DNA of 64,000 bases. Origin: an uncultured Candidatus Melainabacteria bacterium. GTDB taxonomy: Bacteria > Cyanobacteriota > Vampirovibrionia > Gastranaerophilales > Gastranaerophilaceae. The stretch is from NCBI GenBank assembly GCA_934693165.1, contig CAKUUX010000001.1, forward strand, positions 41,206 through 105,205. Reading direction: 5' to 3'. This document shows, in pieces, positions 27,918-59,497 of this stretch; the stretch's first letter is position 1; each line of letters begins with the position of its first letter. A program made the translations under genes and the position numbers. The notes beneath the pieces were generated by a model, which saw nothing but the letters and a program-made list of their open reading frames with translations, was not told where the DNA came from and made no database searches.

Positions 27918-27987
27918 TAAATAATTATAGCGAAATGTGGAAGATTTCTTTCACATTTCGCCAAAGTATATAAAGGAGAAATAATAA

Positions 27988-29697: not shown

Positions 29698-29721
29698 AAA
29701 GTTAGTTAAGGATAATAAAAA

Positions 29722-32700: not shown

Positions 32701-33567
32701 ATGTTGGCTACATTGTTATATGAAAGACAAAAAACAGGTGATATCGTTCAAGGTCTTCCAAGAGTTGAAGAATTACTTGAAGGTAGAAAACCTAAAGATA
32801 GTGCAATTCTTGCTGAGTTTGACGGTAAAGCTATTATTGAAACAGATGATGATATGCCAAGATTGTATTTAGAAACTGAAGACGGTTCAAGAACTGAAAT
32901 CAAATTCGCAATTGATGCAAATATTATCGTTTCAAACGGTGAAAAGATTAAAAAAGGTCAACCATTAACAAGTGGTTCACTAAATCCTCATGACGTTATG
33001 AGATTATGTGGTCCAGAAGTTGCACAACAATATCTAGTAGATGAAGTACAACGTGTATATCGTTCACAAGGTGTAGAAATTGCTGATAAACACATTGAAA
33101 TCATCGTTCGTCAAATGACTAAGAAAGTTAAAGTTATCGAACCAGGTGATACAAAACTTCTTCCAGGCGAACTTGTTGAAATGCAAACATTTGAAAAAGA
33201 AAACAAGGAAGCAGTTGCGAACGGTTTACAAGCAGCAACTTGTGAATACATGTTATTAGGTATTACAAAAGCTTCATTGAATACTGAATCATTTATTTCA
33301 GCAGCTTCATTCCAAGAAACAACAAGAATTCTTACTGAAGCAGCTGTAGATGGTAAGAAAGACTTATTGAGAGGTTTGAAAGAAAACGTTATCATTGGTC
33401 GTCTAATCCCTGCAGGTACAGGTTACCATCACTTGACTCATGCAAATGAGGAAAAGGATAAAGAAGCACAAAGAAGAGCAGCAGCACGTAACCAAGCTAG
33501 AAAACCTTCTGCAATCTTAGAAGAAATTGAAGGTATGTTTGGCGCTCCTGACTTCACTATTGAGTAA
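29722..33567 (+). CDS. rpoC2: DNA-directed RNA polymerase beta-prime C-terminal portion with a large lineage-specific insertion.
   Basis: 1281 aa. It begins at the conserved G region ([16 protein letters not shown]), and has a long insertion between the trigger-loop segments. Its own SD is AAGGAT. Confidence 0.95.
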
Positions 33568-39263: not shown

Positions 39264-41225
39264 ATGATGAAAAAGTTTAAACCACTAATAATTTTTATAG
39301 CTGTTATAGTTTTTATGTTCATTACGTATTTTATTTTCAACTTTTTTGTTGAACCAAAATTTTATAATGTAATGATGAATGGCATAGTAGCCGACAAGGC
39401 TGGTCATAGCGATACAGTTATTATAGTTATTGATGACAAATCAATTTCTAAACAACGTTGGCCATGGAAAAGAGATATGTATGCCAAAATGTTTAATTAT
39501 TTGGACAAATATACAAATGCTAAATTGATTGGTTTTGACTCAATTTTATCTTCTGTTGATAAAGATAATTTTAAGGCCGATTTAGAACTCTACAAATCTG
39601 TTGAAAAAAGTAATAAATTAGTTGTTGGTTTTGCTCCATTAATAAAAGCTTATTCTGATAAAACCATTGGTGATATGTATGACAAAGCTTTTGATGAAAA
39701 ATTTGGAATAAAGATAAATGATGAACGTTCTCAAAAAGCGAGAAGTCCATTTAAAAGTTTATCAATGTATCCAGAAGGATATTTCAAAGCTGCAAAAGAT
39801 GTTGGTTCTGTATATGTCGAACTTGATAGAGATGGCTATATAAGAACAATTCCTCAATTATTATCATACAAAGGTAAATTATATCCATCATTAGGTTTGA
39901 GAATGTATGCCAAATTGAATGGTATTACAGAATTTACTGTAACAGATAAATATATTACAAATAATAAAACCGATTTAAAAATCCCTGTTAATCAATCATA
40001 CACAGCAATGTTTAACTATATGCATTTTTATAAAACATTGCCTCAATCAGAATATTCAAGAAAAACATATTCTGCAATTGATATAGTTGACTCTTGGGAT
40101 AATATTCAAAAAGGTAAAAAACCTGTTATTGATCCAAAAGAATTCGATGGAAAAATTGTTTTTGTTGGTGCAAATGCAAAGGCTGCAGCGTTAGGATTGG
40201 AAGATGCTTTGCCAACTCCAATTCATCCGAAACACCCTGGGGTTGATATTCAGGCTACAAACTTAGATAATTTACTGTATGATGAATTTATTGTTCCAAC
40301 TCCTATTTTACAAGATTTTATCGTACAAGTTATTTTAATCTTAGCGACTTTCTTAATTGTAACTTATTACTCATTGTTTATGTCACTGGGTATTATCGCT
40401 CTTATGATGGTTGCATACATTGCTATTTGTATAACATTTTTTAAATTTAATGTTGCAATCAATGTAATAACTCCTCTTGCGCTTCAATTAATTACAATGA
40501 TTTTTGGTTATTCTTACAAATTTATTCTTGAAGCAAGAAACAAAGATAAAATTAAAGACGCAATGGGAAGATATATTTCTCAAGACGTTATGAGAAATGT
40601 CGTAAGCAATATTGATAACTTATCTCTTGGTGGAAAACGTTCTAATGTTACAGTTTTATTTGCTGATATTAGAGGGTTTACATCTATGAGTGAAAAGCTT
40701 ACTCCAGAAGAAATTTCACTAATTTTGAACGAATATTTTACAGAAATTGAACCTATAATTACAAAATACAATGGCGTAATCAACAAGTTTATTGGTGATG
40801 CTGTAATGGCAATCTTTGGTGAACCTATCCAAGACAAAAACCATGCTCTAAATGCTGTATTATGCGCAAATGCTATGCTTAAGAAGGTTAAACAATTACA
40901 AGAAAAATGGTTGTATGAAGGTAAACCAAAAATTGAAATTGGTGTTGGTATAAATACTGGTGATGCTTTCGTTGGTAATATTGGTTCTGAAAAACGTCTT
41001 GAATATACAGTAATTGGTGATACTGTTAACTTAGCCTCTCGTCTTGAAAGTTATAATAAAATCTACAAAACTAACTTCTTAATCAGTAGTTCAACATACG
41101 ACGAGGTTAAAGGTTATGTTGATGTTATTAAAATTTCAGAAGTTCAAATTCGTGGTAAAGCTAAAAAAATGAATATCTATGAAATTTTAAGGATTACAAA
41201 TAATGAAAAAAGTACTAATAGTTGA
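39264..41225 (+). CDS. CHASE2-domain class III adenylate/guanylate cyclase (membrane sensor cyclase).
   Basis: N-terminal transmembrane segment, a ~300-aa extracytoplasmic CHASE2-like domain, three transmembrane segments, then a cyclase catalytic domain (VTVLFADIRGFTSMSE...FIGDAVMAIFGEP...GINTGDAFVGNIGS..YTVIGDTVNLASRLES). Confidence 0.8.
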   Translation: MMKKFKPLIIFIAVIVFMFITYFIFNFFVEPKFYNVMMNGIVADKAGHSDTVIIVIDDKSISKQRWPWKRDMYAKMFNYLDKYTNAKLIGFDSILSSVDKDNFKADLELYKSVEKSNKLVVGFAPLIKAYSDKTIGDMYDKAFDEKFGIKINDERSQKARSPFKSLSMYPEGYFKAAKDVGSVYVELDRDGYIRTIPQLLSYKGKLYPSLGLRMYAKLNGITEFTVTDKYITNNKTDLKIPVNQSYTAMFNYMHFYKTLPQSEYSRKTYSAIDIVDSWDNIQKGKKPVIDPKEFDGKIVFVGANAKAAALGLEDALPTPIHPKHPGVDIQATNLDNLLYDEFIVPTPILQDFIVQVILILATFLIVTYYSLFMSLGIIALMMVAYIAICITFFKFNVAINVITPLALQLITMIFGYSYKFILEARNKDKIKDAMGRYISQDVMRNVVSNIDNLSLGGKRSNVTVLFADIRGFTSMSEKLTPEEISLILNEYFTEIEPIITKYNGVINKFIGDAVMAIFGEPIQDKNHALNAVLCANAMLKKVKQLQEKWLYEGKPKIEIGVGINTGDAFVGNIGSEKRLEYTVIGDTVNLASRLESYNKIYKTNFLISSSTYDEVKGYVDVIKISEVQIRGKAKKMNIYEILRITNNEKSTNS

Positions 41226-41580
41226 TGATTCAAGAAGTTGGGTTTCTTATCACAAAGAAAACTTGCTTTGTAATTACAAAGACATAGAAATTGATACAGC
41301 TCTATCAGCTAGAGATGCTTATGACTTGGTTTTTGGAATGACTTCTAATCCTTATGATTTAATCATAACAGATTTGCACATGGAGTATGATTTTGAACCT
41401 CTATATGCAGGTGAGTGGCTTATACAACAAATTCAACTTTTAAAACAATATTACAAAACAAAAATCTACATCTGTTCTGCAGCGTCTAATATAAAAATGA
41501 TTGCAGAAAGATATAACGTCGATTTTATTCCAAAACCTCTTGCTTCAAGAGATATAACTGTCTACGAAAATCTATTTTAA
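41203..41580 (+). CDS. Stand-alone response-regulator receiver (REC) domain protein.
   Basis: 125 aa. LIVDDS..DLIITDLHM carries the phospho-acceptor Asp. The gene overlaps the 3' end of the cyclase gene by 23 nt. Confidence 0.65.
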   Translation: MKKVLIVDDSRSWVSYHKENLLCNYKDIEIDTALSARDAYDLVFGMTSNPYDLIITDLHMEYDFEPLYAGEWLIQQIQLLKQYYKTKIYICSAASNIKMIAERYNVDFIPKPLASRDITVYENLF

Positions 41581-42417
41581 TTCATCAAGCAAGGTTGGTG
41601 TTTTAAAGCATTTTGCGTGGTATTTTTTAGTATAAAGTTTGCATTGTTCAGAAATTTTTTCACATCTATCTTCATCAATATCTTCTGCAGGGTAAGATGT
41701 GTCCGAACATATTGCCCAAACCCAATATCCTCCAGGATATGTTGGAAGTGGTGAAGAATATGCTTCAACAACATTGAATTCTTCTAAAAGGAGTTTGTAT
41801 AATGATAATGAATCTTCATCCTTTGTTACAGGTGATTCAGACTGAACAACTAAAATACCATTTTTTCTCATAGAAGCTTTGATGTTGTCATAGAATTGGT
41901 TAGTAAATTCTCCAACCCCAGGTCCAAGAGGTGTTGGTGTGCAAATAATGATTACATCGAACATGTCTTTTTTGTCCTTGATATATTCAAATGCATCCAT
42001 AATCAATACTTCAACTCTAGGATCATCCAATCCACTTGAGATTGATGGTAAATATTTTCTGCAAGTATTTACAACCATTTCGTCAATGTCAACGATAACA
42101 ACTTTTTCAATAGTATCATGTTTTAAAATTTCTTTTGCAGTAGTTCCTGTTCCACCACCAATTACTAAAACGTTTTTAGGACATTTGTGGTTTAAAAGAG
42201 GAACATGAGTTACCATTTCACTGTAATAATATTCATCACCTTCTGTTGCATACATTAGACCGTTTAGCGTAAGCATTTTACCTAATTGAGAATCAGTGTC
42301 AATGATTTCAATTTTTTGGTATTTAGATTGTTCTGAAAAAAGAACACTCTTAATTTTTATTGCAATACCAAAGCCTGAAGGCGTTAATTCTCTATAATAT
42401 TGACCTTTATTTGTCAT
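41572..42417 (-). CDS. speE: Spermidine synthase (polyamine aminopropyltransferase).
   Basis: VLVIGGGTGTTAKEILKH..VVIVDIDEMVVNTCRKYLP..DPRVEVLIMDAF are SpeE family signatures. Confidence 0.8.
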   Translation of the reverse strand: MTNKGQYYRELTPSGFGIAIKIKSVLFSEQSKYQKIEIIDTDSQLGKMLTLNGLMYATEGDEYYYSEMVTHVPLLNHKCPKNVLVIGGGTGTTAKEILKHDTIEKVVIVDIDEMVVNTCRKYLPSISSGLDDPRVEVLIMDAFEYIKDKKDMFDVIIICTPTPLGPGVGEFTNQFYDNIKASMRKNGILVVQSESPVTKDEDSLSLYKLLLEEFNVVEAYSSPLPTYPGGYWVWAICSDTSYPAEDIDEDRCEKISEQCKLYTKKYHAKCFKTPTLLDELK

Positions 42418-42441: not shown

Positions 42442-42750
42442 TTATTGAGCTAAAATATGAGCATGGAAGTGGAAAACTTCTTGCCCTGCAGATTTTCCTG
42501 TGTTAATAACAGTTTTATATTCAGCTATATTCATCTTTTTGCAAACTGCTTTTATCCCTTTGAAGATTTCACTCATAAGTTTTTCATCTTCAATTTCATT
42601 TAAATTTGCTACATGTTCTTTTGTGATAACAAGTAGATGAATAGGGGCTTTCGGATTAATATCTCTGATTACAAATAAGTAGTCATTTTCATATAAGAAC
42701 TCACTAGGAATTTCTTTATTTGCTATTTTACAAAATATACAATCTTTCAT
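42442..42750 (-). CDS. HIT-family (histidine triad) nucleotide hydrolase.
   Basis: 102 aa with the C-terminal HFHAHI histidine triad. Confidence 0.8.
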   Translation of the reverse strand: MKDCIFCKIANKEIPSEFLYENDYLFVIRDINPKAPIHLLVITKEHVANLNEIEDEKLMSEIFKGIKAVCKKMNIAEYKTVINTGKSAGQEVFHFHAHILAQ

Positions 42751-42796: not shown

Positions 42797-43327
42797 TTAT
42801 TTTATCAATTGTTGAACTTCTTTGAAATGAGGATTTTTAGAAGATTCCAAAAGTTCAAATAGAGCGATTTCAACACAAGAAATCTTAATGCCATTTTGGC
42901 GCATTAAGTCTATTCCTGTGTTGTAATCATATTCTTTTCTACTTTTGCAAGCATCTTTTATTAAATATACTTCATAACCTTTTTTGATTAAATCCATTGC
43001 TGTTTGGTAAACACAAATATGAGTTTCAATACCAAATAAGACTATTTGTTTTTTGTGAAATAATCTTATCATATCAAGTGCGTCATCTTCTTTTAATAAA
43101 GAAAATGCCGTCTTTTCAATATATTTTTGTTTATCGTTTTTAAGTTCAGCTAAAGTTTGACCAAGACCTTTTGGGTATTGTTCACTTACAAGTACTGGGA
43201 TATTTAATATTTCTGCTGTTTTAATGATTTTTTCTGCTTGTTTAACTTCGTTTTGTGCATTTGTTGCATTTACAAGTTTTTCTTGCATGTCAATCATTAT
43301 TACTAAAGCGTCAGATGCTTTTAACAT
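42797..43327 (-). CDS. Isochorismatase-family cysteine hydrolase.
   Basis: ALVIMIDMQ, KQIVLFGIETHICV (catalytic Cys), and a YcaC/PncA-like fold. Confidence 0.7.
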   Translation of the reverse strand: MLKASDALVIMIDMQEKLVNATNAQNEVKQAEKIIKTAEILNIPVLVSEQYPKGLGQTLAELKNDKQKYIEKTAFSLLKEDDALDMIRLFHKKQIVLFGIETHICVYQTAMDLIKKGYEVYLIKDACKSRKEYDYNTGIDLMRQNGIKISCVEIALFELLESSKNPHFKEVQQLIK

Positions 43328-43350: not shown

Positions 43351-44805
43351 TTATTCTGAAATGTCTTCGCTGTTTTCAAGAAGTTGGTTAAGTTGTTTTG
43401 CAGAGATTCTTGGTTGGTTAATTGTTGCATTACCACCACAACAACCACTTTCACAGCTCATAACTTCTACAATATTGCAATTTGGACATTCGTTTTTTGT
43501 AGCATATTGTTTAAGTTCCTTGATTGTAGCTTTGTTTAAACCATTAATAATACATGGTTTAGCATCAGGTGCTAAGAATTGTACTGCTTTTGCAACACCA
43601 CCTGATACACCAAAGTTTCTACCTTGTTTAGAACTTGTTGTTTCAAATTGTGTTTCTTCGCAATTTAATACGTCGATTTGTCGACCAATGAATAATGCGC
43701 CAAGTTCTTCGTAGCTCATTACAAAGTCAACGTTGTCATTTGCTTTACCTTCTGAACGTTTTGCAACACATGGGCTTACAAATACTGCAATTGTTTCAGG
43801 TTCTGCTTTTTTAACAAGTTCTGCTGTATAGTAAAGAGGTGTTTTTGTTGTTGAAACAAAAGGTTTAATTTCTGGTAAATGCTTTGCAACAAGGTTGTTG
43901 TAAGCTGCACAACAAGAAGTTGTCATAAAGCTTGCGCCTTCTTCCATTCTTTCTTTAAATTCTGCAGCTTCATTTTTTGTTGTTATGTCTGCCCCTTGTG
44001 CTACTTCAATAACATCATCAAATCCAGCTTTTACTATAGCTGTTTTTAATTGATAAAGTGTCCCTGGGAATTGTCCAACGATTGATGGTGCAATCATTGC
44101 TACAACTTTTTTATCAGATTTAATTGCTTTTAAGATATCAATTAATTGACTCTTTTCGTGTACTGCGCCAAATGGGCATGCTGCAATACATTTACCACAG
44201 CTAATACATTTTTCAAAATCGATACTTGCAAAACCAGTTTCGTCTTTTGAAATAGCACCAACAGGACATGCTGCTTCACATGGAACAGTTGTTTGTACTA
44301 TTGCACTATATGGGCATGCATTCATACACATTTTACATTTTTTGCATTTTGTTGTATCGATGTGAGATTTGCCGTCTACGATTGAAATAGCACCAAACTT
44401 ACATGTTTTTTCGCAAGGTCTTGCAACACAGCCTTGGCATAAATCTGTTACGTGAATTTGACTAGGTACACAACCTTTGCAAGCTGCTTGTAATACTGTC
44501 AAATTTCTATTATCTAATTCTGTTCTTTTTAAAGCTTCTTTTGCATAAGTGTGAAGTGATTTTCTTTCATCATCTTCTTCAATTTGGAAACCAAGTCCTG
44601 CAATTGCTCTATCTTTAAGAATTGCTCTTTCTTTATAGATACAACATCTATAAGGAACTTCAGCTCCTTTTGGTCTCATATCATAGGGGATTAGTCTTGT
44701 ATTTTCTGCAAAATCTTCTGAAAAGAATGCTTTTACAAGTCTAATTAAAATTTCTTTTTTTAAATGTATTGATTGTGCGTTATTATTCATTTTCCTGTCT
44801 TCCAT
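43351..44805 (-). CDS. [FeFe]-hydrogenase catalytic-subunit-like protein (HydA-like) with N-terminal ferredoxin-type FeS clusters and divergent H-cluster motifs.
   Basis: Several CxxCxxCxxxCP ferredoxin motifs (CKKCKMCMNACP, CISCGKCIAACP). The H-domain motifs are L1 TSCCAAY (canonical TSCCPxW), L2 SPCVAKRSE (canonical MPCxxKxxE), and L3 EVMSCESGCCGG (canonical ExMxCxxGCxxGG). Confidence 0.75.
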   Translation of the reverse strand: MEDRKMNNNAQSIHLKKEILIRLVKAFFSEDFAENTRLIPYDMRPKGAEVPYRCCIYKERAILKDRAIAGLGFQIEEDDERKSLHTYAKEALKRTELDNRNLTVLQAACKGCVPSQIHVTDLCQGCVARPCEKTCKFGAISIVDGKSHIDTTKCKKCKMCMNACPYSAIVQTTVPCEAACPVGAISKDETGFASIDFEKCISCGKCIAACPFGAVHEKSQLIDILKAIKSDKKVVAMIAPSIVGQFPGTLYQLKTAIVKAGFDDVIEVAQGADITTKNEAAEFKERMEEGASFMTTSCCAAYNNLVAKHLPEIKPFVSTTKTPLYYTAELVKKAEPETIAVFVSPCVAKRSEGKANDNVDFVMSYEELGALFIGRQIDVLNCEETQFETTSSKQGRNFGVSGGVAKAVQFLAPDAKPCIINGLNKATIKELKQYATKNECPNCNIVEVMSCESGCCGGNATINQPRISAKQLNQLLENSEDISE

Positions 44806-44835
44806 ACCTTAAAATTTACATACAAAATTATACTA

Positions 44836-45093
44836 TTATTTATTTAAAATTTCATTAATTTTTTCTAAAACTTTTTCAGTTGTAGCTTCAGAAATTATTT
44901 CGTCATTTACTCGTACATAAGGAGCTTTTGAATATTCTGTATTTTTTGAACACATTTCTAAGCATGTACTTCCGTTTATTTCAACTTTATCTCCATATTT
45001 TCTTGGTACGATGTCTATTAATTCTTGCAAATGAGAGCCACCCATTACAAAACACGTTGTTCCTAAGCATACGTCAACTTTAATCTTTTCCAT
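44836..45093 (-). CDS. Thioredoxin-like [2Fe-2S] ferredoxin (NuoE/HydC-like small protein).
   Basis: 85 aa. Cys pattern CLGTTC ... CLEMC (Cx4C...Cx3C) is typical of the thioredoxin-like 2Fe-2S family. Confidence 0.6.
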   Translation of the reverse strand: MEKIKVDVCLGTTCFVMGGSHLQELIDIVPRKYGDKVEINGSTCLEMCSKNTEYSKAPYVRVNDEIISEATTEKVLEKINEILNK

Positions 45094-45102
45094 ATTTTCT
45101 CC

Positions 45103-46260
45103 TTACATGTACTGTATTATTACTTTTTTAAAATATTTATTTTCCAGAATGTCTGAAATCTTTTTTATGACATTTTTACGAATTTCAATTTCAATAGGTA
45201 AATTGGGGTCGTAATGTGCCTGATTTAATTTTGCACCAACCATAAAGGTTATGCAATCTGTATCTAACATAAATTTTACAAGAGCACCTGCTGCATCATC
45301 CTGAAATTCGCCTGTATCAAGGTATTCACATGCTTTTGTTAAGGTTAAGATACCTTCTGTTACTAGGTCTATTCCTTCCATATAAGATATTGCAGGAAGT
45401 TTTCCAACGCTCAAGTTAATATTAGTTTTGATAGGAATATTTAATTCTCTTGAAACTAAATTTGCTGTTGTTCCCCCAGAAATAGCTTTTTTGCCATTGA
45501 AATCCATTAGGGCTTGAGCATAGAACTTATCTTTTGCCTGATGATATGGTGGACCTGTAAATACTACGGCGTTTCTTGGTTCTCTATAATAAACACAAAC
45601 TGCTGATATATCGTCTTTTGCTTTTCTATCAGGTTCTTTCAGAATAGCTTGTTTTACAATTCTTTTTGCTAAGTTTGAGCTAGAAATATTAGGTTCTTTC
45701 TCTAATTCTTTTTTTACAATTTCAATTAAACCTTCTCGTCGTAATCCAAGTCTTAGGTCTTTTGTTCCTAATGCTGCTTGAGTTACGCCGTCTGAGCAAA
45801 ATACTAATCTATCATTTGTTTGCATTTTTAAATGATAAATATGCATGTGTCTATTTGGAAATTCTTTTGATGTAAGAATTTCAAATTCTGGTTCTAAAAC
45901 TTCGCCGTTTCTTATCCATAAAAATTGTGGATTTCCTTCTTCTACAATTTTTGCGTTTCCATCTTCATTGCAATCAAGCGCTGAAAAAGTTGAGTAACTT
46001 ATTTTTCTAACCTGACATACTGGAAGAGAGTTCATAACTGTTTCACATGCTTTTTTAATGCTTGTTCCTTCTTCCATAAATTTAAGTAACATTGTTGATG
46101 TCATGCAAGCTAAAATATTGGCTTTTATTCCACTTCCTAATCCGTCAGAAAGTACTGCCAAAAGTCTTCCTGAATCAGTAAAACGTTTTGAAGTGAAATA
46201 ATCCCCAAAAGTGTTTTGGTTATATTTTTTTTCTTGCGCAACGTCGATGTCGATAAACAT
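45103..46260 (-). CDS. PP2C/SpoIIE-type serine phosphatase with a C-terminal domain of unknown function.
   Basis: LAVLSDGLGSGIKANI and RLVFCSDGVTQAALG are the PP2C metal-binding Asp motifs. The gene overlaps the HydS stop by 1 nt. Confidence 0.6.
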   Translation of the reverse strand: MFIDIDVAQEKKYNQNTFGDYFTSKRFTDSGRLLAVLSDGLGSGIKANILACMTSTMLLKFMEEGTSIKKACETVMNSLPVCQVRKISYSTFSALDCNEDGNAKIVEEGNPQFLWIRNGEVLEPEFEILTSKEFPNRHMHIYHLKMQTNDRLVFCSDGVTQAALGTKDLRLGLRREGLIEIVKKELEKEPNISSSNLAKRIVKQAILKEPDRKAKDDISAVCVYYREPRNAVVFTGPPYHQAKDKFYAQALMDFNGKKAISGGTTANLVSRELNIPIKTNINLSVGKLPAISYMEGIDLVTEGILTLTKACEYLDTGEFQDDAAGALVKFMLDTDCITFMVGAKLNQAHYDPNLPIEIEIRKNVIKKISDILENKYFKKVIIQYM

Positions 46261-47984
46261 TACAATTCTTCTCCGTCGTCATCAGAATTATCGTTAGAAT
46301 AGTCTTCTGCAATAGAATTTAGAAGAACTTCCGTTTCAACCATGTGTTCACCCAATAAACATGCTATTTCTTGAACTTTTGTGATGTTCTTTTTAATAAC
46401 TTCTCTTGCTTTTGTTGCAATTTTTTCTCTATCAATTTCGGCTTTTGTTACATCAGTTATTACTGCACCTACGATTTCGCCGTCTTCAATTGTAAAAGCG
46501 TTTATATCATATAATTTGTTTTTAACTTGGTAATGCGATTTATGAATATCCCCACCAGATTTTAGTAATTGGCTGAAAATATCGCTAAAAGAGATTATTC
46601 TATCAATTGATGCACCCGATAAACCTTCTTTTCTTGAGGCAAAAATTTCGTACATATCGCCACAGAACATTTTCATAAAAGCGTCGTTTGCTTCTACAAT
46701 GTTCAAATCTTTATCTACCATAACAATGGCTGATGGCATGCATCTAAGCATTGCTGCTGCTTTTCGCATTGCAATTTTTCGCATATAAGAAATACACATT
46801 GAAGGTTCGGCGTCACCCTTAACAAGCGCTTTTGCCATATCTCTACATGTTGAATATCCACATCCACCACAGTTTAATTCGTCATCTGGCGTATGTTTAC
46901 CAATTTTTTTCAATGCATTTGTTATGTCTGCGAATTTAACGTCATCTTCGATAACTGGTTTGCTTACATATTCTTTTTCAAAAACTGTTTCAGCTATCTT
47001 AGGAATTTCATCCCTATGTTTTATTTTAGATAAAATATCTGTCGTGATAGCAAGTCCAGCCTTTTTGCTAGAAATACAAGGTCCATTTATACAACCTGTT
47101 TCACAAGATAGGGCTTCTACAAAAATTTTATTGTTAATAGAGTTAATGTTTAAGCCTTCCATTGTTTTATCGAAGGTTTCTAATCCACTGATTTTAACAA
47201 GTGATATATCATCATTTATTCCAACTTCTTTAATCGTATCAATCATTCCACCTTCAATTGGGTATAATGCCCCTTCAAAAGCTTCTTCTGGAACGAATTT
47301 ATCGCTAGATTTTACTTCAATTTCGTTTATGTTGATAAATTCTTCACTTATCCAGTAGTTTAATTCTTCAAAAGTTAAAGCTACATCAATAAAATCAGGG
47401 TTTGAATCGGCTTCGTTTTTCTTTCCGATACAAGGTCCAATAAATACAATACTGATATTATCACCGTATTTTTCCTTCAACATTTTGGCGTGAGTTAAAG
47501 CTGGTGATGCAACGGGTGTAATATATTTTGCAAGTTCAGGTTTGTAATATCTTATATAGTCGACAATTACAGGGCATGCGCTTGAAATATATAATCCGTT
47601 TTCGCCTTCATTAAGCATTTCTGCTGTTTTAATTGAAACTTGTTGAGCACCTAAAGCTGTTTCACTCACTGCATAAAAACCCAGTTTTTTAAGCACTGCA
47701 ACCATTTGTTGTTGTGTTAGGTCATAAATACCTGACCAACTTGGAGCAAGTGATACATATACTTGTTTTTGAGCTGTTATCAGAGTTTTAACTTTATCAA
47801 TATCACTTCTAACTTTTTTAGCACCAGAAGGACAAACCTTTACACAGTGTCCACAAGCGATACATTTATCTTTGATTACAGAGGCACTGCCGTCTTGAAA
47901 TTTAATAGCTTTAATATGGCATTCTCTTACACATTTATAACAGTCATGGCATTCATTTTTTAATGTATAAACTGGATATGTCAT
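46260..47984 (-). CDS. hydS: Sensory (group C) [FeFe]-hydrogenase HydS: ferredoxin domain, H-cluster domain, and a C-terminal PAS domain with an accessory 4Fe-4S motif.
   Basis: N-terminal CHDCYKCVREC and CIACGHCVKVCP. H-domain motifs SSACPVIV (L1 variant), GPCIGKKNEA (L2), FVEALSCETGCINGPC (L3). Then NCGGCGYSTC-x16-C, an exact Cx2Cx4Cx16C, followed by a PAS fold (MLRCMPSAIVMVDKDLNIVEANDAFMKMF...). Confidence 0.8.
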   Translation of the reverse strand: MTYPVYTLKNECHDCYKCVRECHIKAIKFQDGSASVIKDKCIACGHCVKVCPSGAKKVRSDIDKVKTLITAQKQVYVSLAPSWSGIYDLTQQQMVAVLKKLGFYAVSETALGAQQVSIKTAEMLNEGENGLYISSACPVIVDYIRYYKPELAKYITPVASPALTHAKMLKEKYGDNISIVFIGPCIGKKNEADSNPDFIDVALTFEELNYWISEEFININEIEVKSSDKFVPEEAFEGALYPIEGGMIDTIKEVGINDDISLVKISGLETFDKTMEGLNINSINNKIFVEALSCETGCINGPCISSKKAGLAITTDILSKIKHRDEIPKIAETVFEKEYVSKPVIEDDVKFADITNALKKIGKHTPDDELNCGGCGYSTCRDMAKALVKGDAEPSMCISYMRKIAMRKAAAMLRCMPSAIVMVDKDLNIVEANDAFMKMFCGDMYEIFASRKEGLSGASIDRIISFSDIFSQLLKSGGDIHKSHYQVKNKLYDINAFTIEDGEIVGAVITDVTKAEIDREKIATKAREVIKKNITKVQEIACLLGEHMVETEVLLNSIAEDYSNDNSDDDGEEL

Positions 47985-48221
47985 TTATGATAAACCTTTC
48001 AATAATGAGTTTAATACTTCTGGAGTAACGTTAGAATAATGTTTTCCGTCAATGTACAAATTAGGGCCATCTGCACATTTTCCTTCGCAATGAGAGCCAA
48101 CAAGTTCAATTTTTGCATCTAAACCATTTTCTTTTATATAATTCTCAATAGTTTCTACGTTTTGAGAATTTCCTCTTGCGAAACAAGCGCTTCCCATGCA
48201 TATCTTAATTTCTGTAGTCAT
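47985..48221 (-). CDS. Thioredoxin-like [2Fe-2S] ferredoxin.
   Basis: 78 aa. CMGSAC ... CEGKC (Cx4C...Cx3C). Its stop codon abuts the HydS start codon. Confidence 0.6.
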   Translation of the reverse strand: MTTEIKICMGSACFARGNSQNVETIENYIKENGLDAKIELVGSHCEGKCADGPNLYIDGKHYSNVTPEVLNSLLKGLS

Positions 48222-48223
48222 TT

Positions 48224-48847
48224 TTAAACCTCATCATCATTGTTGGTGAATTGTAAAAAGTTTCCTATTAAGTTTTCGTTCCAAACTTTTATGCCTTCAG
48301 GAACATCTAAAACGCTTGGTGTAAAGTTCCAAATGTATTTTATTCCAGAATTTGCAAGGTATAATGCTGTGTCATTCGCAAATTCTCTAGGAACTGTTAA
48401 AATTGCAATGTTTACTTTTAATCTTTCTGCTAAATTTGGTAATTTTGAAACATGGAAAATTTCTTTTCCTTTTATTGAATTACCAACTTTTAATGGGTCA
48501 TTATCAAATAGGGCTAGTATATTTAAACCATAATTTTCAAAATTGTCGTATTTTGCAAGTGCCATACCCAAGTTACCTGCACCAACAATAAATACGTCTT
48601 TTACTTTTTTGAAACCTAATGTGTGTTCTATAGAATCTTTTAATTCTTTTACAGAGTATCCAACTTTGCATTTACCAACGTTATTTAAGAATTTTATATC
48701 TTTTCTAACTTGAGAATCATCAACATTAAGTCTTGAACCGATTTGAGGACTAGAAATGAATTCAATGCCTTTTTCATTGTACTCAACTAAAATACAATGA
48801 TAAAGAGTTAATCTATTTATTACTTTGTCTGTTAATTTTGTTTTCAT
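48224..48847 (-). CDS. rex: Redox-sensing transcriptional repressor Rex.
   Basis: N-terminal winged helix (VINRLTLYHCIL), Rossmann NADH-binding fold (VFIVGAGNLGMALA), and a C-terminal domain-swap helix. It is the first gene of the hydrogenase operon. Confidence 0.85.
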   Translation of the reverse strand: MKTKLTDKVINRLTLYHCILVEYNEKGIEFISSPQIGSRLNVDDSQVRKDIKFLNNVGKCKVGYSVKELKDSIEHTLGFKKVKDVFIVGAGNLGMALAKYDNFENYGLNILALFDNDPLKVGNSIKGKEIFHVSKLPNLAERLKVNIAILTVPREFANDTALYLANSGIKYIWNFTPSVLDVPEGIKVWNENLIGNFLQFTNNDDEV

Positions 48848-48889: not shown

Positions 48890-48930
48890 TAAAAACCCCA
48901 AACCGACAAAATGTCGGCTTGGAGTTTTTT
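48890..48930 (-). terminator. Rho-independent terminator of adhE.
   Basis: Minus-strand reading: AAAAAACT CCAAGCCGACA-ttt-TGTCGGTTTGG GGTTTTTAT. It lies between the adhE stop and the rex start. Confidence 0.8.
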
Positions 48931-48940: not shown

Positions 48941-51640
48941 CTATACAACACCGTTAAATGCGTCGATATAGATTTGTTTAATATCTGACATCAATGGATA
49001 TGCTGGGTTAGCACCTGTACATTGATCGTCGAATGCTAATTCAACTAACTCGTCTAAGTGTTCATTCCAGTATTCTTTAGTGAAGCCAGCTTTTGTGATG
49101 AATTCTTCAATAGAATTTGGTAAGTTGATAGCTTTCATTAATCTATCAATTGCTTTAATTAATAATTTAACTTTTTCGTCATCATTTTTACCACCTAATT
49201 GTAATTCATCAGCAATTTGACCGTATTTAGCCTTCGCACAAGGATATTTATATTGTGGGAAGATTGCTTGTTTGTGTGGAGCATCAGAAGCATTGTATTT
49301 AATTACTTGTCTGATTAACAATGCGTTAGCTACACCGTGTGGAACGTGGTACATAGCACCAAGTTTGTGAGCCATTGAGTGACATAATCCTAAGAATGAG
49401 TTAGCGAATGCCATACCAGCAATTGTTGCTGCATAGTGCATTTTTTCTCTTGCGATAGGATCGTTAGCACCTTCATTGTAACTTCTTTCCAAGTATTTAA
49501 ATACTAATTTTGAAGCTTCTAAAGCATTTGAATTAGTAAAGTTTGTTGCCATACAAGAAACGTAAGCTTCAATTGCGTGAACTAATGCGTCAATACCAGA
49601 TGCAGAAGTTAAACCTTTTGGCATACCATCAACGAAGTTAGGGTCGATAATTGCCATGTTTGGTGTTAATGCGTAATCAGCGATTGCGTATTTAACGTGA
49701 GTTTCGTCATCTGTGATGATAGCGAATGGTGTTACTTCTGAACCAGTACCTGATGTTGTTGGAATTGCAACCATTGTTGCTTTTTTACCTAATTCTGGTA
49801 ATTGACAGATTCTCTTTCTAATATCCATGAATCTCATAGAAATATCTTCGAATACTGTGTCAGGTTGTTCATACATTAACCACATAATTTTAGCTGCGTC
49901 CATTGGAGAACCACCACCTAATGAAATAATTACATCTGGTTCAAATGGTTTTAAGATAGACATTGCTTGGTTAATTGTTGACAATGTTGGATCTGGTTTA
50001 ACGTCGAAGAATACTTGGTGTTCAATACCAATTTCATCTAAAACGTTAGTAATTTTGTTTACTGCACCTGAGTTGTATAAGAAACTATCTGTTACGATAA
50101 AGGCACGTTTTTTACCTTGAAGTTCTCTTAATGCTAAATCAGTAGCACCTCTCTTGAAGTAAATTTTTGATGGAGCCTTAAACCATAACATATTTTCTCT
50201 CCTTTCAGCTACAGTCTTATAGTTTAATAAGTGTTCAACACCTACGTTACCTGAAACAGCGTTGCCACCCCAAGAACCACAACCTAATGTTAATGATGGT
50301 TCTAATTTGAAGTTGAATAAATCACCAATACCACCTTGAGATGATGGAGAGTTGATTAATACACGGCAAGTAGGCATTTTTTCAGCGTATGCGTTGATTC
50401 TATCGCTCTTTCTTTCGTCTGTGTACAATACTGATGTGTGACCTGCGCCACCTTTGCTTACTAATTCGTAAGCCATTTCAGCAGCTTGTTCGTAATCTTT
50501 AGCTTTGTACATAGCTAAGATTGGAGATAATTTTTCTCTTGAGAATGGATCGTTCCAGTCAACTTCTGGTCTTTCAACTAAAAGAATTTTTGCATCTTCT
50601 GGAGTTTTGAAACCTGATAATTCAGCGATTTTGTGTGCTGATTGACCAACGATTGCAGGGTGAGCTGTTCCTCTAGCAGGATCGATAAATGGTAAGTCTA
50701 CCATTTTCTTTTGTTCTGCTTTGTTTACAAGGTAAGCACCTCTGTATAAGAATTCTTTTTTAACTTCTTCGTAAACATCTTCAACAACTACTACTGATTG
50801 TTCTGATGCACAAATCATACCGTTATCGAATGTTTTTGACATAAGGATTGAAGATACAGCCATTTTAATATCAGCTGTTTCGTCAATTACTGCAGATGTA
50901 TTACCAGGACCTACACCTAATGCTGGGTTACCTGATGAATAAGCTGCTTTAACCATTCCTGGACCACCTGTTGCTAAGATACAATCAATTTTAGGGTGTT
51001 TCATCAATGCACTTGATAATTCGATTGATGGAACGTCAATCCAACCGATGATATCTTTTGGAGCACCAGCTTTAACTGCTGCATCTAAAACTAATTTAGC
51101 TGCTGCAATTGTTGATTTTGTTGCTCTTGGGTGTGGTGAGAAGATGATTGCGTTTCTTGTTTTTAAAGCAATTAATGATTTGAAAATTGCAGTTGAAGTT
51201 GGGTTTGTTGTAGGAATGATACCTGCTAAAACACCTAAAGGTTCTGCTACGATTTTTGTACCATTTGCTTTATCTTCTTTGATAACACCACAAGTTTTAA
51301 CGTTTTTGTGTTTGTTATAAATGTATTCTGAAGCGAAGTGGTTTTTGATAATTTTATCTTCTAAAACGCCCATACCAGTTTCTTCTTTAGCCATTCTAGC
51401 TAGAGGAATACGAGCTTTGTCTGCTGCTGTAGCAGCTGCTTTGAAGATTTTATCAACTTGTTCTTGAGAATAGTGTGAATATTCTTCTTGAGCTTTGTGT
51501 ACTCTATCAATTAGAGCCTCAAATGCTTCAACACTATCTACTAAATTAGAAGCATTATATGCTTTTTCTAATTTTTCAACAGCATCTTGTTTTTTTGAAG
51601 ACTTTTTAGTTGCTGTCTTCTTTGTTGTTGTTTTTGGCAT
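48941..51640 (-). CDS. adhE: Bifunctional acetaldehyde-CoA/alcohol dehydrogenase AdhE, with a Lys/Thr-rich N-terminal extension.
   Basis: ALDH domain (catalytic ..GMICASEQS..) plus an Fe-ADH domain (GGGSPMDAAK; HSMAHKLG). ATG at 51638-51640 has an AAGGAG SD. The longer track ORF begins at a TTG at 51694 with no SD. The conserved AdhE core starts about 27 aa after MPKTTTKKTATKKSSKK. Confidence 0.9.
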   Translation of the reverse strand: MPKTTTKKTATKKSSKKQDAVEKLEKAYNASNLVDSVEAFEALIDRVHKAQEEYSHYSQEQVDKIFKAAATAADKARIPLARMAKEETGMGVLEDKIIKNHFASEYIYNKHKNVKTCGVIKEDKANGTKIVAEPLGVLAGIIPTTNPTSTAIFKSLIALKTRNAIIFSPHPRATKSTIAAAKLVLDAAVKAGAPKDIIGWIDVPSIELSSALMKHPKIDCILATGGPGMVKAAYSSGNPALGVGPGNTSAVIDETADIKMAVSSILMSKTFDNGMICASEQSVVVVEDVYEEVKKEFLYRGAYLVNKAEQKKMVDLPFIDPARGTAHPAIVGQSAHKIAELSGFKTPEDAKILLVERPEVDWNDPFSREKLSPILAMYKAKDYEQAAEMAYELVSKGGAGHTSVLYTDERKSDRINAYAEKMPTCRVLINSPSSQGGIGDLFNFKLEPSLTLGCGSWGGNAVSGNVGVEHLLNYKTVAERRENMLWFKAPSKIYFKRGATDLALRELQGKKRAFIVTDSFLYNSGAVNKITNVLDEIGIEHQVFFDVKPDPTLSTINQAMSILKPFEPDVIISLGGGSPMDAAKIMWLMYEQPDTVFEDISMRFMDIRKRICQLPELGKKATMVAIPTTSGTGSEVTPFAIITDDETHVKYAIADYALTPNMAIIDPNFVDGMPKGLTSASGIDALVHAIEAYVSCMATNFTNSNALEASKLVFKYLERSYNEGANDPIAREKMHYAATIAGMAFANSFLGLCHSMAHKLGAMYHVPHGVANALLIRQVIKYNASDAPHKQAIFPQYKYPCAKAKYGQIADELQLGGKNDDEKVKLLIKAIDRLMKAINLPNSIEEFITKAGFTKEYWNEHLDELVELAFDDQCTGANPAYPLMSDIKQIYIDAFNGVV

Positions 51641-51761
51641 TTTTTTATTTCTCCTTTTTTTAGTGGGTAATCGTGATTTATTTCCTGATAGCAACAGTAT
51701 AAAAAATATTAAGTGTTTTTGTCAACCCTTAATCGTTTTCCAGTATTTACAAGCCTTAACA

Positions 51762-51779
51762 AAGTGATTTTTGTCACGA
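51762..51779. promoter_or_regulatory. Putative Rex operator upstream of adhE.
   Basis: AAGTGA-TTTTTG-TCACGA is an inverted repeat GTGA-N6-TCAC matching the Rex box core (TTGTGAA-N6-TTCACAA). It sits about 40 bp upstream of a TTGACA-N18-TATACT sigma-70-like promoter (minus strand, 51725-51696) that drives adhE. Confidence 0.4.
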
Positions 51780-51789: not shown

Positions 51790-52689
51790 TTATCGTGAAT
51801 AATTTCCCATAGAAATGTTTTTTGCATGCTCTGGTTCGGAGTGAATTATTATTGATATGTTGCCTATTTTACTTGTTATAGCGTGTTCAATCTCATCACA
51901 AATTTTATGGCAATCGTAAATTTTCATATCATTGTCAAATAAAACTGTTAGTTCCATTTTTATCATTGGACCTATGTTTCTTGCTTTTAGGTCTTTGTAA
52001 CCTTTTATATTCTGAAAAGTGTCTAATATTTTTGTTATTTCTTCCATTTCGTTTTTAGAAATTGAACCTTCAAGAAGGTTATTTAGAGTTTGTTTCATTA
52101 TTGTATAACCTGCCTTAAAGATAATACCTGCAACGATTATAGCAATAATTGGATCGAGAATTGTAAGACCTGTGATTTTTATCGCAATTAAGCCCAAAAG
52201 CACTCCAAGTGAAGAAAAAACATCTGTTCTTAAATGTTCTGCATCTGCATAAAGTGATACCGAATTTGATTTTTTTGCGACAAAGAATAAACATTTGCTA
52301 ACTATTATATTTGCCAAAACTGCAAAAGTCATGACAAAAATACAAAGTTCTGATTCAATTTCTGCGTGGTAACCAAAAATAAGTTTTTTAGAGGCTTCGT
52401 ACACGATATAAACAGAGGCAAGTACAATTAATAAGCCTTCTATAAATCCAGACATATCTTCATATTTTCCATGCCCAAAAGGATGTTCCTTGTCTGCAGG
52501 TTCGCTTGAGCGTGATACGGCAAAAAATGTTAGTATAGAAGCTAAAAAGTCACTAAAAGAGTGAACTGCTTCTGAAATAATACTTATACTTCCAGAAATA
52601 AATCCGGCAATAAACTTAAGTATAATTATTATTGCGTTTGAAATTATTGATGTTGTTGCTACTAATTTTTTCTCTGTATTAATATCCAT
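51790..52689 (-). CDS. Cation diffusion facilitator (CDF) family divalent-metal efflux transporter.
   Basis: Six transmembrane segments with HSFSDFLAS and HPFGHGKYE motifs. The C-terminal cytoplasmic domain is present. The start is reassigned to ATG 52689 (MDINTEKK...) because the longer track ORF overlaps the next gene's SD and start. Confidence 0.75.
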   Translation of the reverse strand: MDINTEKKLVATTSIISNAIIIILKFIAGFISGSISIISEAVHSFSDFLASILTFFAVSRSSEPADKEHPFGHGKYEDMSGFIEGLLIVLASVYIVYEASKKLIFGYHAEIESELCIFVMTFAVLANIIVSKCLFFVAKKSNSVSLYADAEHLRTDVFSSLGVLLGLIAIKITGLTILDPIIAIIVAGIIFKAGYTIMKQTLNNLLEGSISKNEMEEITKILDTFQNIKGYKDLKARNIGPMIKMELTVLFDNDMKIYDCHKICDEIEHAITSKIGNISIIIHSEPEHAKNISMGNYSR

Positions 52690-58520: not shown

Positions 58521-59444
58521 ATGGCACTTTTAGAATCTTCTAAGCAATATCTTGAAATGTTTAAGACATATTTGATTGTTGAGAAAAACTTTTCTGAACA
58601 CACTCTAAAAGCGTACACTTCTGACTTATTGACATTTTTGATTTGGTTAAAAGATATTCCATGCACTTCTGTTAATTATACAAAACTTAGAGAATATCTT
58701 TATTTTATTCAAAAATTTGATTATAAAAAAACTACCGTCGCTAGAAAATTAGCGTCTGTTAGAACATTTTATAAGTTTTTATATAGAGAAAAAATTATGG
58801 AGATTAATCCTGCAAGTAATTTGAATTCTCCAAAAAGACCGAAATCGTTGCCAAAATTTTTAACTCCACAAGAAATGGAAAAGATTTTGAATAACGTAAA
58901 AATGGATACGCCAGCAGGTTATAGAAATAAGGCAATTTTAGAACTTCTTTGGGCTACAGGCATGCGTATTAGTGAATTGAGTGGGCTTAATTTTGGGGAC
59001 TTAAATCTCGATAATAACGAAATTAGAGTTTTTGGTAAAGGCGCAAAAGAAAGAATTGTTCTTGTGACTGATAGGGCAAAAACTTATTTGAAAAGATATA
59101 TTGAAAATGCTAGACCTTTAATTGTTGCAAAAGGTTTTAAGCTAGAAGAAATAACAGAGAGTACACCAGTTTTTATTAATAATACTGGATATAGACTTCA
59201 AAATAAAACCGTAAGAAATGCTATAAAAACAGTTGTTGATAATATTCAATTGCCCAAAAAAGTTACTCCACACATGTTTAGACATAGCTTTGCAACAAAA
59301 CTAATTGAAAATGGAGCAGATTTGAGGGTTGTACAAGAACTTTTGGGGCACGCTAGTATTTCAAATACCCAAATTTATACTCATATCAGCACAAAACACT
59401 TGCAAGATGTTTATGAAGCTTCTCATCCGAGGGATAATTTATAA
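58521..59444 (+). CDS. xerC: Tyrosine recombinase, XerC/XerD family.
   Basis: Catalytic residues in ATGMRISEL (R), KGAKER (K), HMFRHSFAT (H-R), and LLGHASISNTQIYTHI (H..Y). SD is AGAGGGG. Confidence 0.8.
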   Translation: MALLESSKQYLEMFKTYLIVEKNFSEHTLKAYTSDLLTFLIWLKDIPCTSVNYTKLREYLYFIQKFDYKKTTVARKLASVRTFYKFLYREKIMEINPASNLNSPKRPKSLPKFLTPQEMEKILNNVKMDTPAGYRNKAILELLWATGMRISELSGLNFGDLNLDNNEIRVFGKGAKERIVLVTDRAKTYLKRYIENARPLIVAKGFKLEEITESTPVFINNTGYRLQNKTVRNAIKTVVDNIQLPKKVTPHMFRHSFATKLIENGADLRVVQELLGHASISNTQIYTHISTKHLQDVYEASHPRDNL

Positions 59445-59497
59445 AATTCGGCTATTTATATTATTAATTTAATTTGAAAAAATATTATAATTTAGGT

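Follow-up and report, generated by a model that had tools for sequence, protein, structure and literature searches.

The 64,000-nucleotide (nt) stretch of DNA analyzed here, referred to in full as the window, comes from an uncultured gut Candidatus Melainabacteria bacterium of the Gastranaerophilales (contig CAKUUX010000001.1, assembly GCA_934693165.1). On its minus strand it carries a compact cluster in which adhE is followed by rex, a small ferredoxin gene (fdx1), a gene for a sensory-type [FeFe] hydrogenase (hydS), a PP2C/SpoIIE phosphatase gene, a second ferredoxin gene (fdx2), and hydB, which encodes a group B [FeFe] hydrogenase (Table 1). Taken together, these genes probably form a fermentation switch, in which ethanol formation by AdhE and ferredoxin-dependent H2 evolution by the group B hydrogenase would be coupled to two sensors, Rex and HydS. 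A preliminary description of this DNA had listed the six genes from rex to hydB as a tightly packed set with adhE immediately before it. All six open reading frames (ORFs) lie exactly where that description had placed them, and the ORF coordinates give spacers of 2, 0, -1, 9, and 30 nt for rex/fdx1/hydS/PP2C/fdx2/hydB; the identity of adhE was also borne out. Rex scores 221 bits against the NF003994 cut-off of 130; it combines an N-terminal winged-helix domain with a Rossmann NAD(H) domain, whose GxGxxG motif is GAGNLG at residue 89. Both ferredoxins carry the ligand set Cx4C...Cx3C (Cys 8, 13, 45, and 49 in the first; Cys 9, 14, 44, and 48 in the second). For adhE, the ORF list gives a TTG start at 51694, but translation probably begins at the ATG at 51640, which follows an AAGGAG ribosome-binding site.

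Table 1. Features of the adhE-to-hydB locus, with coordinates in the window
Feature	Coordinates	Strand	Basis or remark
adhE, bifunctional acetaldehyde-CoA/alcohol dehydrogenase, directly upstream of rex	48941..51640	-	NF010378 at 1366 bits
rex, redox-sensing (NADH/NAD+) transcriptional repressor	48224..48847	-	NF003994, PF06971, PF02629
fdx1, thioredoxin-like [2Fe-2S] ferredoxin (NuoE C-terminal type), HfsA position	47985..48221	-	PF01257
hydS/hfsB-type sensory [FeFe] hydrogenase, 574 aa, group C, M2f architecture	46260..47984	-	profiles, motifs
PP2C/SpoIIE phosphatase gene, HfsC-type, 385 aa	45103..46260	-	PF07228; 1-nt overlap with hydS stop
fdx2, second thioredoxin-like [2Fe-2S] ferredoxin	44836..45093	-	PF01257
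hydB, group B [FeFe] hydrogenase, 484 aa, HfsD position, equivalent of R. albus HydA2	43351..44805	-	TIGR04105
Isochorismatase-family gene, 23 nt downstream of hydB	42797..43327	-	PF00857
HydS H-domain, residues 73-302, motifs SSACP, GPCIGKK, EALSCETGC	47079..47768	-	PF02906 at 164 bits
HydS C-terminal Cx2Cx4Cx16C [4Fe-4S] motif, residues 372-397	46794..46871	-	PF04060, regex
HydS PAS domain, approximately residues 419-511	46452..46730	-	PAS_9/PAS_8 hits, AlphaFold, Foldseek
HydS C-terminal 54-residue helix, residues 513-566, no output domain behind it	46287..46448	-	AlphaFold pLDDT 83-91
PP2C/SpoIIE catalytic domain, residues 30-224	45589..46173	-	PF07228 at 57 bits (cut-off 25)
Phosphatase C-terminal alpha/beta (Rossmann-like) domain, residues 225-385	45106..45588	-	no Pfam family
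Hairpin and U-run in adhE-rex spacer, intrinsic terminator-like	48891..48929	-	-26 kcal/mol, z = -7.5
5' untranslated region element GGAAATAAATCACGATT with TCACGA half-site, between -10 box and ribosome-binding site	51669..51685	-	
adhE promoter-like site: TTGACA, 18-nt spacer, TATACT	51696..51725	-	sigma-70-like, 11/12 positions
Rex-type palindrome TCGTGACAAAAATCACTT with a GTGA-N6-TCAC core; the adhE -35 box follows about 37 nt downstream	51762..51779	-	
Additional conserved TCACGA half-site upstream of the palindrome, overlapping the end of a CDF transporter gene	51793..51798	-	alignment of close relatives

The product of hydS retains all four cysteine ligands of the H-cluster (C137, C185, C294, and C298, within SSACP, GPC, and SCETGC). 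Compared with the enzyme CpI, the position of the proton-relay cysteine C299 is Ala, that of M353 is Gly, and Met497 is lost; moreover, the alignment to group A HydA structures reveals no equivalents of E279 and R286 of the Glu/Arg proton path. These substitutions match the pattern described for the sensory enzyme TmHydS, which has A131 at the relay position, where Ala is the commonest residue of sensory enzymes (PMC10055695). Across 35 homologues, conservation of the active-site motifs is 90% or higher, and the four cysteines of the Cx2Cx4Cx16C motif are invariant. With two 4Fe-4S motifs besides the H-domain and the Cx2Cx4Cx16C motif, HydS would hold three accessory [4Fe-4S] clusters overall. 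The Pfam PAS matches fall slightly under the cut-off. In the AlphaFold model of residues 355 to 574, a PAS core (pLDDT of about 80 to 90) is followed by a long helix, and the top Foldseek matches in the PDB are all PAS domains at a probability of 1.00 (Aer2, YF1, FixL, and CitA). The helix resembles those of PAS-coiled-coil sensors such as YF1 (4gcz). Among the PDB matches there were no solved structures of group B, C, or D enzymes, and the best were group A. Group C (M2f) is defined by an atypical C-terminal [4Fe-4S] motif followed by a PAS domain (PMC13104023), and the 574-aa protein is predicted to have this sensory architecture, corresponding to HydDB group C3 by architecture and neighborhood. 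The earlier assignment of this protein as group C-like, with a PAS domain and a Cx2Cx4Cx16C motif, survived profile searches, inspection of the motifs (SSACP, GPC, and EALSC), and structure searches.

The second hydrogenase of the cluster is of a different kind. Its 484-aa sequence passes the TIGR04105 (FeFe_hydrog_B1) model at 502 bits, against a cut-off of 450, over residues 11 to 464, and it has an additional N-terminal region of about 110 residues. All four H-cluster cysteine ligands are kept (motifs TSCCA, SPCVAKR, and EVMSCESGCCGG), as are the equivalents of E279, E282, and R286 in the alignment to solved group A enzymes, which suggests an active site of the catalytic type. By analogy with HydA2 of Ruminococcus albus and with HfsD, the enzyme may carry out ferredoxin-dependent H2 evolution. 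The preliminary description had called it a catalytic, HydA-like hydrogenase; the catalytic motifs are there, and the likeness to HydA gave way to a group B assignment. A further candidate identity, the group D/M2e type represented by TamHydS, was rejected, as the group B model was passed and a C-terminal cluster domain is missing: the approximately 25 residues behind the L3 motif hold no Cys cluster, and the last Cys is residue 456 of 484.

The gene between hydS and fdx2 encodes a phosphatase of the PP2C/SpoIIE type, as had been proposed. Its invariant elements are D39-G-L-G-S-G, S156-D-G, and D216-D217, and D39, D157, D216, and D217 are the same in all 35 sequences compared. Since these metal-binding aspartates are invariant, the enzyme is probably active. 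The C-terminal stretch of about 160 residues is conserved to the same degree as the catalytic half and contains invariant GGTTA and NQAHYxP motifs. No Pfam match was found for this domain, even at E values up to 5; it is confidently modelled as an alpha/beta/alpha fold (pLDDT 86, pTM 0.82), and Foldseek returned no convincing structural relative, the best match having E = 2e-3. In a search of 1.84 billion representative proteins, the domain occurred in 789 clusters, nearly always at residues ~230 to 395 of proteins of about 390 aa with an N-terminal SpoIIE domain. Because these clusters share its position behind the SpoIIE domain, the C-terminal domain is a signature of the HfsC-type phosphatase family. 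It also aligns over its whole length with the phosphatases of R. albus and Monoglobus, whose genes overlap hydS by 8 nt, compared with 1 nt in the window. The preliminary description had found no NuoF-like subunit, anti-sigma antagonist, or kinase nearby, and we likewise found no kinase, STAS, or NuoF gene among the scanned ORFs of the window, a set that comprised the cluster and, outside it, ORFs of at least 150 aa. A partner-switching module (STAS substrate plus HATPase kinase) next to the phosphatase was equally missing from that set, and no homologue of the R. albus kinase was found in the window or in 80 related loci with flanks of 10 kb on each side. This absence is not distinctive of Melainabacteria, since hfsABCD and the Monoglobus locus also have no kinase.

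The transcription unit probably starts at adhE and not at rex. The 93-nt spacer between the two genes contains a strong hairpin, and a sigma-70-like scan of this spacer found no promoter-like site. Hairpins of differing sequence occupy the same position in eight related loci (L003, L005-L008, and L010-L012), at distances from rex down to about 20 nt, and in four others (L016, L026, L028, and L039) the spacer is only 10 to 15 nt long and the hairpin is absent. We infer that the hairpin is a leaky terminator and, because the spacer holds a hairpin without a promoter, that adhE-rex-fdx-hydS-PP2C-fdx-hydB is one transcript with an internal attenuating hairpin. The six-gene operon proposed previously therefore stands as far as its packing is concerned, but probably not as a self-contained unit, given a conserved Rex-type operator found only upstream of adhE, an adhE-rex spacer with no recognisable promoter, and some relatives with 10- to 15-nt spacers. 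In the two closest relatives, the adhE-rex spacers contain insertions of 60 to 200 nt (L001, ~1776-1930; L002, ~8849-9137) with internal inverted repeats and a common block, CCCTCACCGATTTTT...CTTCGTGCAAAAAATCTCCTCTCC, which could be a small mobile or repeat element placed behind the hairpin.

At the other end, no minus-strand terminator-like site was seen between hydB and the isochorismatase-family gene, and for this reason the unit may extend into that gene. This neighbor was found downstream only in L001-L003 and L012 and is not part of the conserved cluster. It opens a minus-strand chain that continues with a HIT-family gene (42442-42750) and a spermidine synthase gene (41572-42417), with 23- to 46-nt spacers and no terminator-like site; the set is shared by the nearest relatives only, and the last gene of the chain overlaps a convergent response-regulator gene.

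Regulatory elements were found upstream of adhE. The TTGACA and TATACT hexamers are conserved in relatives and make up the best sigma-70-like match of the region. Upstream of them lies a palindrome with the core GTGA-N6-TCAC, to be compared with the reference Rex operator TTGTGAA-N4-TTCACAA, and the orthologous sites of L005 and L006 are perfect matches to the Rex consensus TTGTGA-N6-TCACAA. Across 1.37 Mb of related loci, the regions just upstream of adhE, or of fdx1 in loci without rex and adhE, make up 1.5% of the sequence and hold 18 of the 23 GTGA-N6-TCAC sites. This corresponds to a binomial P of ~1e-28, or ~7e-21 when distinct 18-mers are counted, both values being inflated by relatedness. 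In the rex-less loci, the sites stand 33 to 45 nt before the fdx1 start codon, and no conserved element of this type was found before rex. The element GGAAATAAATCACGATT, nearly invariant in L002-L011 and L026, is a possible second operator. The operator signal comes from the comparison with related loci only, as a strict search of the window for the Rex consensus TTGTGA-N6-TCACAA, allowing 3 mismatches at most, yields 73 matches where 70 are expected, shows no enrichment, and is uninformative by itself. None of adhE, rex, and fdx1 has a conserved Clostridia-type box (TTGTTA-N6-TAACAA) upstream, and a simple regex search of the 300 nt upstream of R. albus rex found no Rex-type box. Most likely, Rex binds the GTGA-N6-TCAC palindrome together with the TCACGA half-sites at the adhE promoter. 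A degenerate palindrome, TTGCGATAAAAATCACAG, is also present inside the CDF transporter gene (52170-52187, minus strand), about 540 nt upstream of adhE. Its ortholog at the corresponding position of L002 and L003, TTGTGATAAAATTCACAG, is an almost perfect Rex-type box, and the window copy may represent a second operator in decay.

The distribution of these genes separates a constant core from more variable neighbors. Our scan of species-representative genomes yielded 426 HydS relatives, of which the best 80 loci were examined, and neighbors were counted among those loci with enough flank. The phosphatase gene adjoins hydS in all 67 loci, with fdx2 present in 65/67, the group B hydrogenase in 63/67, and fdx1 in 63/64; rex is linked in 26 of 64 and adhE in 27 of 64. 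The best related locus, from Cyanobacteria bacterium UBA791, is 96% identical. Given the frequencies of PP2C, fdx2, and hydB, and the presence of the same cluster in R. albus (Bacillota), the gene arrangement is not due to chance. Moreover, the neighbor counts and a divergent NuoE/NuoF/HydA trimer in several rex-less loci show that the sensor-phosphatase-hydrogenase core is the constant unit, flanked by at least two alternative sets of neighbors, of which rex and adhE form one. The conserved rex-hydS-PP2C-hydA order that the preliminary description had proposed to survey thus holds for the hydS-PP2C-hydB part, but in only some of the loci for the link to rex.

In L044, the trimeric hydrogenase (NuoE/NuoF/group A HydA; 5471-9637, confirmed by family models) lies on the opposite strand near fdx1-hydS, and eight other loci (L030, L034, L041, L054, L067, L072, L075, and L076) have only weak (25 to 27%) opposite-strand hydrogenase matches. 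One sensor core is paired with different hydrogenases in different clades. Several loci that are 65 to 92% identical (L002, L005, L008, L011, L019, L040, L052, and others) belong to metagenome-assembled genomes titled as Methanobacteriaceae, Anaerovoracaceae, Alistipes, Muribaculaceae, Desulfovibrio, Brachyspira, or Clostridium, which are most likely mis-binned or mislabelled genomes.

These observations can be assembled into a scheme with two sensors. Rex, the first, would read the NADH/NAD+ ratio at the operator of the adhE promoter, and read-through of the hairpin would supply the regulatory and hydrogenase genes at a lower level, leaving Rex autoregulated. HydS, the second, would bind H2 at an H-cluster without proton relay and turn over slowly, because the proton-relay Cys and the Glu/Arg path are lost. 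It would exchange electrons with the adjacent 2Fe-2S ferredoxin or ferredoxins and pass on its state through the C-terminal [4Fe-4S] cluster, the PAS domain, and the long helix. The most likely output is a complex of HydS with the phosphatase, as HydS has no output domain and is translationally coupled to PP2C in three phyla; in this complex, H2 would modulate the Ser/Thr phosphatase activity on a phosphoprotein encoded elsewhere. The phosphoprotein, in turn, would determine how strongly the group B hydrogenase and AdhE are expressed or how active they are. The present analysis itself shows the gene identities, the motifs, the PAS fold, synteny, operator conservation, the hairpin, and the homology to the R. 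albus locus. Beyond these, the scheme presupposes Rex binding at this site, a single transcript, contact between HydS and PP2C, a direction of regulation, and a target of the phosphatase; published work on homologues is the source for the dependence of hydA2/adhE expression on H2 and for the regulatory genetics of hfsB, hfsC, and hfsD. On the whole, the candidate H2/NADH sensing circuit of the preliminary description gains support and agrees with the hypothesis published for the R. albus and Thermoanaerobacterium loci.

Several points weigh against this scheme. Of the 12 positions that the Rex consensus specifies, the window palindrome TCGTGACAAAAATCACTT mismatches 3, and its location ahead of the -35 box, not over the promoter, is unusual for a repressor; TGTGA-N6-TCACA is, besides, the CRP-family consensus as well. 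Just 26 of the 64 loci have rex next to the core, which implies that Rex is not obligatory for the module. The single transcript is a prediction from sequence, and no kinase or STAS partner was found among the scanned window ORFs or in the 80 loci with their 10-kb flanks. In addition, the C-terminal cluster of the group D relative TamHydS is unresponsive to H2 (PMC13104023), which calls the simplest signalling route into question, and rex expression is up in high-ethanol T. saccharolyticum strains, the opposite of what a simple model predicts (PMC5707799).

Other readings of the locus were weighed against the two-sensor switch. The first is a more specific one, in which the locus is a kinase-less integrator on a single transcript and the C-terminal domain of the phosphatase is the real regulatory element, either the dock for the PAS domain and helix of HydS or a site for a nucleotide or phosphometabolite. 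One Rex-controlled promoter would then give high adhE levels and, through the leaky hairpin, lower levels of rex, hydS, and the group B hydrogenase gene. We regard this as speculative and rather unlikely; if true, PP2C proteins would have a regulatory domain of a new type, and the switch would receive a second metabolic input.

A second alternative concerns the operator, since GTGA-N6-TCAC upstream of adhE could be the site of a CRP/FNR-family activator, with Rex acting on other targets or only on the TCACGA half-sites. Apart from the shared consensus, this is favored by a palindrome center located about 48 nt upstream of the -35 box, where class I activators, but not repressors, typically bind, by the lack of enrichment in the strict Rex scan, and by the CHASE2 adenylate cyclase gene 8 kb away, which implies cyclic AMP signalling in this organism. 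However, the element co-occurs with adhE and with hfs/hydrogenase operons, established Rex targets in other phyla, and it takes a repressor-like position before fdx1 in the rex-less loci. The exact Rex consensus in L005 and L006, the further conserved half-site downstream of the -10 box and ahead of the ribosome-binding site, and the absence of a CRP-family gene within the cluster also speak for Rex, so that an activator site has only a small chance of being the right reading.

Third, the five genes after rex could encode the subunits of one multi-subunit catalytic hydrogenase, as Hfs was first described (the main H2-evolving enzyme). The NuoE-like proteins would be electron-transfer subunits, HydS a second subunit that has low catalytic activity or takes in electrons, and the PP2C-like protein a structural or assembly part. 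Tight spacing and translational coupling do suggest stoichiometric co-production, and ferredoxins in 63/64 and 65/67 loci go beyond the apparent need of a pure signalling module. Furthermore, deletion of the whole hfs operon reduces hydrogenase activity and H2 (PMC5707799, PMC11837493), and TmHydS keeps measurable activity despite the Ala at its relay position (PMC10055695). Nevertheless, HydS lacks the proton-relay Cys and the Glu/Arg path and has a PAS domain and a signalling helix, and the invariant metal-binding aspartates of PP2C argue for a working phosphatase. The published genetics point the same way: deletion of hfsB alone raises hydrogenase activity, so HfsB acts negatively, and hfsD alone restores the phenotype without hfsABCD, so HfsD is independent of the other subunits (PMC5707799, PMC11837493). 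Along with the description of R. albus HydA2 as a ferredoxin-dependent hydrogenase by itself (PMC10838669), this evidence makes a single multi-subunit enzyme improbable.

The last alternative is that HydS senses how reduced the ferredoxin pool is, with the 2Fe-2S proteins feeding it electrons, and that H2 is a mere by-product; one or two thioredoxin-like ferredoxins are indeed conserved beside hydS in all three phyla examined, and HydS has three accessory [4Fe-4S] clusters. The retention of four H-cluster Cys ligands is nevertheless hard to reconcile with it, a complete H-cluster site, which requires dedicated maturases, being odd for a pure redox sensor. The failure of H2 to reduce the TamHydS C-terminal cluster (PMC13104023) favors this view, but R. 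albus hydA2/adhE expression tracks H2 removal by a partner (PMC10838669), and we consider it very improbable as a separate explanation, all the more as H2 and ferredoxin redox are thermodynamically linked through this enzyme and both readings overlap.

Some other features of the window deserve mention. On the plus strand, a gene for a 653-aa class III adenylate/guanylate cyclase with a CHASE2 domain overlaps by 23 nt the start of a gene for a 125-aa receiver-domain protein (39264-41580); the cyclase and the stand-alone receiver form a cyclic-nucleotide signalling pair adjoining the cluster. Also on the plus strand, rpoB is followed by a split rpoC (24606-33567; rpoC1-like, 569 aa, and rpoC2-like, 1281 aa), which is typical of the cyanobacterial lineage and agrees with the taxonomic assignment, and two tandem tyrosine recombinase genes (XerC/XerD-like, Phage_integrase; 307 and 298 aa) are located at 58521-60370. 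On the minus strand, a 649-aa protein (22273-24222) has as its sole Pfam match a C-terminal 'chaperone of endosialidase' (Peptidase_S74), as in phage tail-spike-like proteins, and in a 1131-aa protein (6740-10135) only an N-terminal double zinc ribbon was recognised; both proteins are otherwise unannotated.

The locus bears on how fermenters sense H2 and split electrons among H2, acetate, and ethanol, and HydS-type sensors have been studied spectroscopically. The Gastranaerophilales are uncultured relatives of Cyanobacteria thought to be H2-producing syntrophs. Nearly all of their gut members carry the fdx-HydS-PP2C-fdx-group B hydrogenase module, which extends a known system to a new phylum. 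In one clade, adhE and rex are physically attached to this module, an arrangement also seen on the plasmid of R. albus. Its independent occurrence in two phyla makes it more plausible that the sensing of NADH and H2, the formation of ethanol, and ferredoxin-dependent H2 evolution belong to one functional unit. The locus is no new kind of system; what it offers for comparative experiments is an operator conserved among relatives, a predicted transcript divided by a hairpin, and a phosphatase domain that is conserved but unannotated. The HydS/PP2C locus appears to be undescribed so far in Melainabacteria, and the genomics literature searched for this group, including the paper that sequenced the L016 genome, makes no mention of a sensory hydrogenase, PAS, phosphatase, or Rex. 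The sensing hypothesis, the architecture, and the classification have already been published for other organisms.

Accordingly, the preliminary view of a poorly characterized architecture had to be given up: the same cluster exists on plasmid pRUMAL01 of R. albus 7, HydDB provides the class C3, and hfsABCD is a further precedent. A tblastn search with the window HydS finds the pRUMAL01 locus (NC_014824.1; founding paper Zheng et al. 2014, J Bacteriol 196:3840), which has the same gene set on one strand with 5- to 17-nt gaps, in the order rex-adhE-kinase-fdx-fdx-hydS-PP2C-hydA2. There, a 249-aa phosphotransferase is the proposed Ser/Thr kinase, the SpoIIE phosphatase overlaps hydS by 8 nt, and HydA2 (478 aa) is also a TIGR04105 group B1 protein, at 577 bits. 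Full-length identities between the window and R. albus are 59% for AdhE, 38% for Rex, 32% for HydS (E = 7e-85), 34% for the hydrogenase and HydA2, 33 to 37% for the ferredoxins, and 26% for PP2C, including its C-terminal half. The two loci differ in that R. albus has rex and adhE in swapped order, a kinase with no counterpart in the window or the 80 Melainabacteria loci, and both ferredoxin genes before hydS, whereas in the window one lies between the PP2C and hydrogenase genes. In addition, only the window has the hairpin between adhE and rex, and its locus is apparently chromosomal in a member of the Melainabacteria, in contrast to a plasmid of Bacillota. According to published work, hydS and hydA2 form a transcription unit on pRumal01 (PMC10838669), and HydS has been hypothesized to sense H2 and control hydA2/adhE (PMC5707799, PMC10838669). 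The expression of hydA2 and adhE in R. albus follows H2 removal by a partner, with hydA2 transcripts 90-fold lower when the partner takes H2 away, and HydA2 is a ferredoxin-dependent hydrogenase in its own right (PMC10838669). A Monoglobus record shows fdx-hydS-PP2C-group B hydrogenase without rex, adhE, or kinase.

The hfsABCD operon (Shaw 2009) of Thermoanaerobacterium saccharolyticum and T. thermosaccharolyticum, compared here by its published description, has the same order as the window: a small gene, the PAS-hydrogenase HfsB, the Ser phosphatase HfsC, and the ferredoxin-linked [FeFe] hydrogenase HfsD (PMC5707799, PMC11837493). It resembles the window locus further in having no kinase and in its link to adhE and ethanol yield. 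Deletion of hfsA or hfsB raises adhE transcripts and ethanol, and hfsC and hfsD are required (PMC5707799, PMC11837493). A Rex box is predicted upstream of both hfsABCD and adhE in T. saccharolyticum, where rex (Tsac_2615), adhE (Tsac_0416), and hfs (Tsac_1550) are unlinked (PMC5886521), in contrast to their contiguity in the window. The operon also has no second ferredoxin gene between hfsC and hfsD, and HfsA is a poor match to known proteins (PMC11837493), whereas the window fdx1 product is a clear PF01257 ferredoxin.

Among classified and biochemically studied systems, HydDB group C3, 'phosphatase-linked (putative)', denotes putative H2 sensors transcribed with a Ser/Thr phosphatase and fits the window by architecture, and group B carries the label 'colonic-type (putative)' (PMC5037454). 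TmHydS of Thermotoga maritima is built like the window HydS, with two N-terminal 4Fe-4S clusters, an H-domain, a C-terminal 4Fe-4S cluster, a PAS domain, and Ala at the relay position; it is reported to share an operon with another hydrogenase (PMC10055695), which brings it closer to the rex-less Melainabacteria loci with NuoE/NuoF/HydA than to the window. TamHydS of Thermoanaerobacter mathranii (group D/M2e) is short, with two N-terminal 4Fe-4S clusters and a proposed role in H2 sensing, and enzymes of its type have a C-terminal [4Fe-4S] domain (PMC13104023), unlike the 484-aa protein of the window. The logic of the window locus resembles that of HoxBC-HoxJ-HoxA in Ralstonia eutropha, in which a crippled hydrogenase serves as H2 sensor and controls hydrogenase genes by way of a PAS-containing partner and protein phosphorylation (PMC5707799). 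However, its metal center and proteins are unrelated, its output is a histidine kinase and response regulator, and its mechanism has been solved experimentally. By these comparisons, the window locus is the Melainabacteria (Gastranaerophilales) version of the HydS/Hfs locus of R. albus and Thermoanaerobacterium.

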